A stretch of 9,667 nt of DNA, from the IMG/VR virus record IMGVR_UViG_2585427756_000015. One strand, 5' to 3'. The notes beneath the pieces were generated by a model. The model ran no database searches and was not told the origin of the DNA. It worked only from the letters and a program-made list of their open reading frames with translations. The position numbers and the translations under genes are program-made. Origin of the DNA: a virus. Its lineage: Duplodnaviria; Heunggongvirae; Uroviricota; Caudoviricetes. Positions 531 through 1,367 of this stretch are shown one piece after another. The stretch's first letter is position 1. Every line of letters starts with the position of its first letter.

Positions 531-974
531 CTGCGCCCCTTCCAGCTGCTTCTGCATCAGCATCAACCGTTCTCTGAGAGTGAAATAATCCCGTTCAGCG
601 GTGTCTGCCAGTTGGGGGCCGGTTGCATTATCCACGCGGGCGGTGCCGGTGGCTTCACGCACGGGACCTGGACAGGTGGCGTTGATACGCAGGCGCTTAC
701 GACCAGCGGCAACGTCAGCGCGAAGAGTTTCATTTTCAGCTCTCGCATCGGCTAATTCCCTCGAGTATTTTGCATCGAGCGCAGCAACATCGCGCTGGCG
801 CACCTGCATATCAGTAATGGTTGCGTTCGCCAGCTTCAGTTCACTGGCTTTGTTATCGCGCTGCGCTTTGTAGGTAATCGCGTTATCACGGTAATGGTCT
901 GTTGCCATCCACAGCGCTCCACAGGCCACCAGCAGAATAACGATAAACGCGGAAAGCATTCGGTTTATGTTCAC
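528..974 (-). CDS. Rz: Rz i-spanin (lambda Rz family), C-terminus replaced by the IS insertion
   Basis: Translation ...[14 protein letters not shown]...DVAALDAKY...[23 protein letters not shown] matches lambda Rz as remembered. The stop TGA is the reverse complement of the IS terminal TCA (528-530), so the last ~8 residues of a lambda-like Rz are missing. GTG start at 974 overlaps the upstream stop (GTGA); an alternative ATG start is at 959. Confidence 0.85.
563..748 (-). CDS. Rz1: Rz1 o-spanin (outer-membrane lipoprotein) embedded in the +1 frame of Rz
   Basis: 61 aa with lipobox-like LVVSAC, a proline-rich [27 protein letters not shown] segment resembling lambda Rz1, and the classic embedded-gene arrangement inside Rz. 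It lies entirely outside the IS. Confidence 0.8.
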
Positions 975-1102
975 CCCAGCAGCCCCGACGAAGACAACAT
1001 CATCCAGGCCATGGAAAGAAAAAGAGCAACCAGCATTAGTGAAAATGAAATGCCGACAATTACACAGAGGATCTTCGCCAGCGTTATGAGTTTGTCTGAC
1101 AT
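971..1102 (-). CDS. Hypothetical 43-aa single-pass membrane peptide ([43 protein letters not shown])
   Basis: Strong Shine-Dalgarno AAGGGAGGA 6 nt upstream of the ATG at 1102. Its stop TGA overlaps the Rz GTG start (GTGA), which suggests translational coupling. Hydrophobic core consistent with one transmembrane helix. No family recognised. Confidence 0.35.
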
Positions 1103-1116
1103 GCTTAATCCTCCCT

Positions 1117-1299
1117 TCACGATTTCAACGCAATGACCAGTTTTGCCAGCCCATACAGCATCGGGGACACAGCAACACCGACCGCCACCCACTTAATGGC
1201 AAAAGCCAGTGCTCTGCTGATGTCATCAGTTACAGGCGCTTTCAGTTCAAGGCCGTTTTTCATAGTCAACCTCAACAGAATTCGTTTATACTTTTCCAT
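1117..1299 (-). CDS. Hypothetical small protein (60 aa from ATG 1299; alternative starts GTG 1332 = 71 aa, ATG 1263 = 48 aa with the best RBS)
   Basis: ORF between the endolysin terminator hairpin and the 43-aa ORF. GAGG lies 7 nt before ATG 1263. Hydrophobic C-terminal half ([27 protein letters not shown]). No family recognised. Confidence 0.3.
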
Positions 1300-1332
1300 G
1301 TTCTCCCTTGCCTTATCCAAGGTCAGAAACAC

Positions 1333-1367
1333 AAAACCCCGCTTGCAGCCAACAAACGGGGTTTTTA
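1333..1367. terminator. Bidirectional intrinsic-terminator-like hairpin downstream of the endolysin gene
   Basis: AAAACCCCG-(15-nt loop)-CGGGGTTTT with T-rich sequence following on both strands (TTTTTACTTTTATT on plus; UUUUGUGUUUC on minus). Confidence 0.4.

Follow-up and report, generated by a model that had tools for sequence, protein, structure and literature searches.

We report two very small genes, here called open reading frames (ORFs) A and B, that lie in series between the endolysin gene R and the i-spanin gene Rz on the minus strand of a 9,667-nucleotide (nt) stretch of Caudoviricetes DNA (IMG/VR record IMGVR_UViG_2585427756_000015; hereafter the window, whose full length all positions refer to). 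Both are real genes under purifying selection, and each encodes a small protein with one predicted transmembrane (TM) segment. Our tentative reading is that A and B are two independent, very small inner-membrane proteins, carried as optional late-operon modules by lambdoid and other temperate phages, with an accessory part in lysis. An earlier note on this DNA, made from the letters alone, had described two serial minus-strand ORFs between the R hairpin and Rz, one of 48-71 amino acids (aa) depending on its start, and all of these elements were recovered in place. The features on which the argument depends are as follows, SD standing for Shine-Dalgarno sequence.

1325-1370, minus strand: GC-rich hairpin with A-run and T-run flanks (stem-loop 1365-1333), found by terminator scan; the 5' boundary of the ORF A module
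1117-1299, minus strand: ORF A, long form, 60 aa, with a basic 12-residue extension; SD AAGGGAG at 1309-1303; PGAP call WP_021566721.1
1117-1263, minus strand: ORF A, short form, 48 aa, from an internal ATG at 1263-1261; SD GAGG at 1273-1270
1263-1292, plus strand: hypothetical sigma-70-like promoter motif TAGTCA-18-TATACT, antisense, inside the 5' end of ORF A
1103-1117, minus strand: SD of ORF B, AAGGGAGGA (1117-1109), and spacer TTAAGC; the SD starts at the last base of the A stop codon
971-1102, minus strand: ORF B, 43 aa, ATG at 1102 and TGA at 973-971; PGAP call WP_001280932.1

ORF A stops at TGA 1119-1117 and has three candidate starts, namely GTG 1332 (71 aa), ATG 1299 (60 aa) and ATG 1263 (48 aa). 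The first is unlikely, as it lies inside the T-tract of the hairpin and relatives often have a stop codon just 5' of the 60-aa start position. Conservation, the ratio of nonsynonymous to synonymous substitution (dN/dS) and TM-helix prediction, which the earlier note had proposed as checks, all spoke for its description. Among 37 distinct full-length sequences, variable sites in A were distributed 16/6/37 over the three codon positions, and pooled dN/dS was 0.23, compared with 0.64 and 1.85 in the other two frames; for B, dN/dS was 0.45 within a 43-aa type, 0.09 within a 44-aa type and 0.26 between the types. Both ORFs were intact in nearly all of about 190 loci, the exceptions being one frameshifted B variant and some truncated copies of A (A'). 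By hydropathy, each ORF has a single predicted hydrophobic segment. In A, the most hydrophobic 19-residue stretch covers residues 38-56 of the 60-aa form (Kyte-Doolittle score, KD, 1.88), in keeping with the hydrophobic C-terminal half noted before, and the AlphaFold2 model has a helix at residues 2-14, a loop and a long helix at 23-59 (mean predicted local distance difference test score, pLDDT, 76.6). ORF B consists of 10 residues, about 26 hydrophobic residues and SSSGLLG, with its best 19-residue stretch at residues 11-29 (KD 2.89); the 43-aa single-TM-like peptide with a near-perfect ribosome-binding site, AAGGGAGGA-N6-ATG, is therefore present as the earlier note had it.

At least 80% of the queried region was present in 990 of 5426 complete Escherichia coli genomes, and the exact module is also carried by culturable phages such as PhiR12_1 and PhiR5_2 on MG1655. 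Homologs of A were found in E. coli, E. marmotae and Salmonella, and those of B also in Citrobacter, Cronobacter and E. albertii. ORF A matches phrog_1115 (E 1.4e-42) and ORF B phrog_4906 (E 2.1e-23), both PHROG families of unknown function, and in a strain 100% identical over the queried region RefSeq/PGAP lists each as "hypothetical protein". A and B are already catalogued in RefSeq and PHROGs, so neither is new to databases. A tblastn search located B in 276 phage records, including those of the 933W group, where it is mostly unannotated. The remark in the earlier note that small proteins of this kind are often missed by annotation thus holds for B in 933W, Min27 and many Shiga toxin (Stx) phage records, but not for the present locus, where PGAP calls both genes. 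Neither protein had a Pfam or NCBIfam match at E <= 1, except a sub-threshold one to DUF3930 for B, and neither had a PADLOC match at E <= 1 or a match to a Pfam defense or exclusion model (e.g., Imm_superinfect). B was also considered as a paralog of A and rejected (hhalign probability 0.2%).

It is barely credible, and already largely refuted, that A and B are chance frames or the degraded leftovers of some larger known gene, an antirepressor for example. Short ORFs are common, and a frameshifted B, truncated A' copies and B::A' fusions do exist; however, the codon-position and dN/dS signatures are those of coding sequence, intact copies occur in about 1000 complete genomes and in several genera, and family motifs are kept in distant homologs. 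An antirepressor remnant, which the earlier note had named as the finding that would undo its description, was rejected directly, since tblastn of the 933W antirepressor Ant against window 900-1500 gave no similarity even at E 10. Between R and Rz, the only parts of the window that align to 933W are the 93 nt adjoining R and ORF B (80%). The gene order in the group of 933W, Min27 and BP-4795 is S-R-ant-B-Rz, with ant in the slot of A. The B homolog of that group is 44-49 aa long, overlaps the ant stop and ends 7 nt before Rz (in 933W at 2921-3070 of our locus L357, about 27420-27569 of the record); it is annotated as ORF50 in BP-4795 and is unannotated in 933W and Min27.

The A-B-Rz segment is tightly arranged, with the A stop, the SD and the B ATG contiguous, and is syntenic with lysis genes. 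The A-B junction is conserved as two sequence types, both of which carry the SD. Downstream, the B TGA at 973-971 overlaps GTG 974-972, the first start in the Rz frame (GTGA), and across all junction variants the distance from the B stop to the next start ranges from -4 to +10 nt. The overlap between the B stop and the Rz GTG, as claimed before, is present, and B abuts or overlaps its neighbor in every variant, but PGAP starts Rz at ATG 959, 11 nt past the B stop; with either start the gap is at most 11 nt. GTG 974-972 is a plausible Rz start, because the resulting MNINR restores a basic residue ahead of the TM domain, like the MNR/MSR of other Rz proteins, and because in one junction variant the extra Rz codons show a synonymous AAC-to-AAT change. 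The gene immediately after B is always Rz or a small lipoprotein gene (phrog_7528), irrespective of whether A, ant or neither stands before B. The possibility that B is a duplicated N-terminal TM domain of Rz was discarded, as BLASTP returned no alignment.

In every arrangement, the stop of the preceding gene either overlaps the start of the downstream spanin or lies a short gap before it and, as we read the sequence, neither Rz start candidate has an obvious canonical SD at a favorable distance. These features are what would be expected if A and B were coupling leaders, whose translation supplies Rz with ribosomes and fixes its expression level, the peptides themselves being functionless. We consider this highly unlikely: the amino-acid sequences of A and B are under purifying selection, their TM character and motifs (AFAIKW, YG and RWW; VIVGISFS) are kept across genera, and cassettes in which R and Rz are directly coupled work in the absence of A and B.

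ORF A has two conserved starts, each preceded by its own SD, an arrangement that, judged from the sequence, recalls holin/antiholin pairs in its long form; ORF B has a single start. The comparison of starts drew on 27 distinct nucleotide versions collected via peptide patterns and protein searches, so that the upstream codons are unbiased. Over the 9-10 codons of the extension, the proportion of synonymous differences (pS) was 0.40, that of nonsynonymous differences (pN) 0.09 and dN/dS 0.17, which argues that the extension is translated. The internal ATG is kept in all 27 relatives and is followed by AAA in every one, and Arg10 is encoded by the rare codon AGG in 27/27, making GAGG six bases before the internal ATG. 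The predicted duplex between SD and anti-SD at the internal start was -6.3 kcal/mol in 26/26 distinct upstream sequences, with an average of -7.7 kcal/mol at the long start and -2.2 +/- 2.7 at random positions. The long-form start codon is mostly GTG and sometimes ATG or TTG, lies 10-12 codons 5' of the internal Met and often has a stop codon immediately before it; gene callers chose the short-form start in many A homologs. The extension carries a net charge of +3, is predicted to form a short helix and, on this model, should keep the N-terminus cytoplasmic. The short form has a neutral or acidic N-terminal tail, one predicted TM segment and a basic C-terminal end, a layout that may resemble that of N-out/C-in coat-type proteins such as Pf3 coat.

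In one A subfamily (1478-1504 of L321, from phage GER2; also L086, L328-L331 and L343), an 8-codon mini-ORF with a strong SD, MGREVLSL or MCREVYSL, stands before the long-form start, its TGA overlapping the long-form GTG (GTGA). This order suggests a leader-peptide layer of translational control.

The holins of lambda (S105/S107) and phage 21 (S68/S71) have two in-frame starts, separated by a few codons and served by separate translation signals, and the longer product has extra N-terminal basic residues. ORF A is like these dual-start holins in being a small membrane protein (predicted for A) of the lysis cassette with two starts (deduced from the sequence for A). It differs in having one predicted C-terminal TM helix, as opposed to 2-3 TM domains in the holins, and an extension of 12 residues and net +3, as opposed to 2-3 residues and +1; moreover, it lies after the endolysin and beside the spanin, its cassettes are already equipped with a holin, and it has no sequence or Pfam relationship to holins. 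A and B thus share with holins and antiholins their small size, a predicted TM segment and a lysis-cassette position beside the endolysin (some A homologs being in tail modules), but neither belongs to a holin family in Pfam or NCBIfam, their matches being to the PHROG families above. At 43-60 aa, they also lack the i-spanin layout of an N-terminal TM domain followed by a periplasmic coiled coil of about 100 or more residues.

The cassettes compared show that A and B are independent modules. R-A-B-Rz is the commonest arrangement, alongside R-A-Rz, R-B-Rz, R-ant-B-Rz, R-B-A'-Rz, R-A-B-A'-Rz and R-Rz. The R-B-A'-Rz order (L004, 2797-3047) has a truncated A' after B in another frame. In-frame B::A' fusions (P0090 and P0114; 83 and 79 aa), which would encode a two-TM protein, were seen in a few complete genomes; they were rejected as Rosetta-stone evidence of an A-B partnership, as the predicted topology of the A helix would be reversed in them and they come from a few near-identical genomes only.

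A profile of A searched against 1.84 billion representatives gave 19 matches, including proteins about 40-60% identical to A. Peptide-pattern scans added further A-family loci and a scan of metagenome contigs 6 loci, and a scan of genome contigs with the A profile yielded nothing that was confirmed. The family consensus begins M-x-(N/K)-Y-K-R-I-L-(L/M)-R-L-T, followed by M-K-N-G-L-E-x-(D/E)-A-P-V-T-x-E-I-S, and ends with a basic residue, about 20 hydrophobic residues and a C-terminus of R-W-W or L-K(S). In most distinct lineages, A stands directly after the endolysin and directly before outer-envelope lysis genes, and it does so in at least 5 non-homologous cassettes. The lysis contexts of A were the following.

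S21 holin, R lysozyme and Rz (PF03245)
S21, R and a DUF2514 i-spanin (L338)
PF05449 3-TM holin, GH108 endolysin and Rz (L349/350)
PF05449-like 3-TM holin, GH19 endolysin and DUF2514 with an embedded lipoprotein (L348)
Lambda-S-type PF05106 holin, a 139-aa protein and a 142-aa single-TM protein (L325/326/354)
GH19-PG_binding_1 endolysin, A and two small lipoproteins, in P2-like contigs (L200, L333, L336, L345)
Yersinia enterocolitica prophage remnant, A 2 nt from Rz (L195-198)

In the lineages of this list, the A stop is 0-10 nt from the next start, including the i-spanin start in relatives without B. This constant position beside lysis genes suggests an accessory role in host lysis, and it lends indirect support to the lysis modulators that the earlier note had proposed alongside antiholin-like factors and toxin-like morons. 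The E. coli A-B pair is also found in a PF05449/GH108 cassette (L092, L353), in which B is followed not by Rz but by the 60-65-aa lipoprotein of phrog_7528. This lipoprotein (L092, 3325-3522; also L353) has the lipobox LVGC and lies where the sister cassettes L349/L350 hold Rz/Rz1; no i-spanin-like gene was seen nearby in L092 or L353. Other tiny hydrophobic peptides stand in the A slot or after A (L191, 2082-2273; L192, 639-827; L193, 597-737), for example ...NWKFLLVWSIPFLWVVSQ and MSVVSSNWKFLLIWIVFFLWGISGLISALRWW, and they include a 46-aa paralog whose C-terminus is again AAIRWW. Small TM peptides in tandem seem to recur at the A slot.

About a quarter of the distinct A-family lineages lie outside lysis cassettes, in tail or baseplate modules.

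Beside baseplate, tube/tape-measure or fiber genes (L192, L194/L332, L203/L322 type, L335)
Beside a tectivirus-like P2 coat gene (L355)

The patchiness of A and B and these distant sites bear on a moron origin, by which A and/or B would be lysogenic-conversion or superinfection-exclusion (Sie) membrane proteins of benefit to the lysogen and the lysis position a permissive insertion hotspot. Lambda bor and the HK97 gp15 exclusion protein are lambdoid morons, and some morons encode membrane proteins; small inner-membrane Sie proteins block the DNA entry of other phages, and small single-TM proteins are typical of exclusion functions, which counts in favor of cargo. As expected of morons in the sense of Hendrix, A and B are small, patchy extra genes that separate late genes found side by side in relatives: in K-12 Qin, Rz comes immediately after R, cassettes occur with A only, B only, ant-B or neither, and ant fills the same slot in the 933W group. 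In addition, distant A homologs occupy classic moron sites, namely the gap from tail chaperone to tape measure, the position after tail fibers and, in P2-like contigs, the interval between G-like and sheath genes. However, classical morons have their own promoter, a downstream terminator and prophage expression, whereas the terminator of A-B is directly upstream, no sense-strand promoter was found and no terminator follows B. Translation is tightly coupled to Rz or another spanin, so that expression of A and B is tied to a gene expected to be silent in the lysogen. No PADLOC or Pfam match points to exclusion, and a hotspot alone poorly explains why the order endolysin-A-spanin recurs among cassettes whose holins, endolysins and spanins are unrelated. 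Moron cargo is an unlikely account of A and B.

The hairpin upstream of A (1365-1333) folds at about -21 kcal/mol and is 34 nt from the A ATG. An AAAA-CCCC...GGGG-TTTT(T) hairpin precedes the long-form start in nearly all A-family loci, tail modules included, at 25-76 nt where the automated pattern search found it, with folding energies of -13.6 to -22.3 kcal/mol. The earlier note had taken it for the terminator of the endolysin gene; a hairpin is indeed there, but it travels with A and so belongs to the A module, being more than just the terminator of R. Inner stems and loops vary by lineage (GTTTG/CAAGC, GATTG/CAGTC, GAACG/CGATC, TGAACG/CGTCA), and what can be said of covariation is drawn from the individual folds, because in the MAFFT/RNAalifold analysis only the outer seven pairs were in register. 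Flanked by an A-run and, on the opposite side, by a T-run, the hairpin resembles a terminator in both directions. In a lambdoid Q-dependent late operon, sense-strand terminators are read through; in a lysogen, the hairpin would keep stray transcripts from entering A-B-Rz. A promoter scan showed no sense-strand promoter-like site between R and A. A putative SD-sequestering hairpin just 3' of the terminator was dismissed, its pairing being broken in the second sequence type with no compensatory changes.

On the opposite strand, the distant homologs L200, L194 and L192 have an equivalent of the antisense motif, TAGTCA-18-TATA(A/C)T, at the corresponding codons, with 9-10/12 matches across the four divergent loci. 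Tyr4 is TAT in 27/27 relatives and Lys5 is AAA in 26/27, neighboring codons showing synonymous change; this pattern would suit a -10 element, but equally an AT-rich start region and conservation of the peptide. A transcript from this site would be about 75 nt long, from ~1299 to ~1375, and would lie over the long-form SD and start. Taken together with the hairpin, which would terminate both ways and accompanies A in nearly all relatives, the motif raises the possibility of a type I toxin-antitoxin-like system, with A as a toxic membrane peptide whose SD and start are masked in the lysogen by a cis-antisense RNA (promoter 1263-1292 on the plus strand, RNA ~1299-1375); lytic read-through would overwhelm the RNA, and A would help to kill or permeabilize the cell. 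A precedent is hokW-sokW of the Stx2 prophage Sp5, a type I system that is reported to aid phage release (PMC8621323).

Compared with hok/sok, hokW-sokW and the symE/symR layout, A shares the prophage setting, the size and hydrophobicity of a type I toxin (A 48-60 aa and B 43 aa, one predicted TM segment each) and, hypothetically, a cis-antisense RNA with its promoter in the 5' coding region and its end at an intrinsic terminator before the ribosome-binding site. It differs from these loci in having no Hok or other toxin homology, no Rfam antitoxin match and no toxin promoter that could be found (none between R and A, including the 34 nt between hairpin and ATG), and in being embedded in, and coupled to, the late operon. 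The 9-10/12 matches with an 18-nt spacer are equally common in shuffled sequence, and in the window region the count of promoter-like matches was no higher than in such sequence. Conservation of the motif may follow from coding and SD constraints, because its hexamers lie in conserved codons and the internal SD region; we estimate that, given the peptide, such a motif has a chance of about 1/3 per lineage, so that peptide and SD constraints can explain most of its conservation. Rfam gave nothing above threshold for the hairpin region (best, rimP leader, E 0.074), and the main text and supplements of a study of Hfq-bound small RNAs (sRNAs) in enterohemorrhagic E. coli (EHEC; Hfq-CRAC) yielded, when searched, no lysis-gene sRNA and no match to the hairpin sequence. 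A type I system would also leave ORF B unexplained, and we regard it as decidedly unlikely.

Under the accessory-lysis reading, A-B would be made only when Q-modified RNA polymerase coming from pR' passes the upstream hairpin, which we infer because the module has no promoter of its own and a terminator hairpin upstream. A would be translated from its two in-frame starts to give a 60-aa form that has the basic 12-residue N-terminal helix and a 48-aa form that lacks it, B from the strong SD just past the A stop, and Rz by coupling to the B stop. Both proteins would enter the cytoplasmic membrane by their single predicted helix and modulate a membrane step of lysis; judging by position, candidate steps are the triggering of the holin or pinholin or the deployment of the following spanin. 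More speculatively, the two forms of A could be an effector/inhibitor pair set apart by N-terminal charge or topology, as in dual-start holins. That A and B share their strand with Q, the holin, R and Rz is in line with this reading.

Several observations weigh against it. Besides the lineages in tail and baseplate modules, both genes are dispensable, as shown by R abutting Rz in K-12 Qin, by Stx2a phages that keep the hairpin without A and B, and by A-only and B-only cassettes; any role would therefore be modulatory. An S21 holin of the dual-start type is already in the cassette. Neither protein is similar to a characterized lysis protein, defense protein or RNA family (Pfam, NCBIfam, PADLOC, Rfam). 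The local A-B copy, next to a truncated Rz described below, may belong to a decaying prophage. Finally, A is found alongside endolysins of both signal-anchor-release (SAR)-like and non-SAR type, and alongside holins of three kinds; no specific partner is indicated, which argues against a releasin-like or holin-specific partner. As the constant neighbor of A is a spanin or a small lipoprotein, a spanin-related role is at least as likely as an antiholin-like one. The Mu releasin gp25 (DUF2730), which has an N-terminal TM domain and a cytoplasmic domain, is a long-overlooked membrane-tethered accessory for the release of SAR endolysin (PMC9239132). A and B, as small putative membrane accessories in a lysis region, resemble it, and the window endolysin looks SAR-type; however, they have no Pfam match, the TM helix of A is C-terminal, and A also occurs with apparently non-SAR GH108 and GH19 endolysins.

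A further-reaching version of the lysis reading would make the A family an unrecognized, widespread dual-start single-helix lysis regulator or effector with its own bidirectional terminator, silenced in lysogens by that terminator and a cis-antisense RNA; during lytic growth its two forms, of opposite activity or topology, would time the spanin or holin step, and B would be an Enterobacteriaceae-specific, spanin-proximal partner. This full picture is improbable as it stands.

We have filed A and B as two uncharacterized families among the accessory small membrane proteins of phage late and lysis operons. For the synteny of the A family, its traveling hairpin, the conserved dual start and the unannotated 933W-type B, no description was found in our literature search. 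That search returned no paper by peptide sequence or WP accession of A or B and no relevant paper on small membrane proteins between endolysin and spanin, and the A and B sequences were not found in the supplements of the Sakai small-gene Ribo-seq study. Holin, endolysin and spanin make up the usual Gram-negative lysis scheme, to which new accessory players, such as the Mu releasin, are still being added. The A-B pair lies beside spanin genes in about one-fifth of complete E. coli genomes, and B is also present in classic Shiga-toxin phages. If A and B tune lysis timing, they would also affect when, and in what quantity, phage and Shiga toxin are released; if they have no phenotype, they are ordinary hypothetical prophage genes, already in databases.

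By ORF list and Pfam assignments, the minus strand of the window, part of an E. coli prophage, is a lambdoid late region, in which A and B have the following neighbors.

8258-8953, minus strand: Q antiterminator (PF06323)
6607-8186, minus strand: eukaryote-type Ser/Thr kinase (PF00069) and PP2C phosphatase (PF13672) pair, between Q and the tRNA genes
5871-6120: three tRNA genes, Met-CAT, Arg-TCG and Arg-TCT
3042-4895, minus strand: SASA esterase
Between the esterase and the YdfR/DUF1327 gene, minus strand: phage-21-type class II holin S21 (PF04971)
Between the holin and R, minus strand: YdfR/DUF1327 protein
1456-1983, minus strand: R lysozyme, the endolysin (PF00959, E 3.1e-24), upstream neighbor of the A-B module
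528-974, minus strand: Rz i-spanin (PF03245, E 1.5e-44), GTG at 974-972, alternative ATG at 959
563-748, minus strand: Rz1 o-spanin lipoprotein (PF06085, E 1.3e-20), embedded in Rz

The N-terminal GLSAAVLALIAAGA of R looks like a SAR domain. About 1 kb without a long ORF (4896-5870) separates the tRNA genes from the esterase; stx genes presumably occupy this interval in Stx phages and, if so, the prophage would be a stx-less relative.

At the other end, window 1-530 is the end of an IS3-family insertion sequence (IS), with a transposase C-terminus at 42-488 containing rve domains and the terminal sequence TGAACCGCCCCGGG. The IS end is inserted in the 3' end of Rz, so that its own TGA serves as the Rz stop and the Rz product ends in ...LEGAQ. 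Compared with 933W Rz (...LEGTQKYINEQCR), the window Rz is without about 9 C-terminal residues, including a Cys, and because of this loss the spanin of the window prophage is probably defective.

Between the YdfR-like gene and R, a 90-aa ORF on the plus strand (2089-2361) overlaps the 3' end of the YdfR gene. RefSeq lists it as a hypothetical protein and one phage record as DUF1823-containing, and a Pfam scan gave no match; it looks like an opposite-strand moron within the lysis cassette. A second terminator-like hairpin, on the minus strand at 2931-2959 (AGAGCCATCAG...CTGGTGGCTTT, then a T-run), separates the esterase from S and lies immediately 5' of the holin start. The late operon therefore appears to have several internal terminators, so that Q antitermination would be needed.

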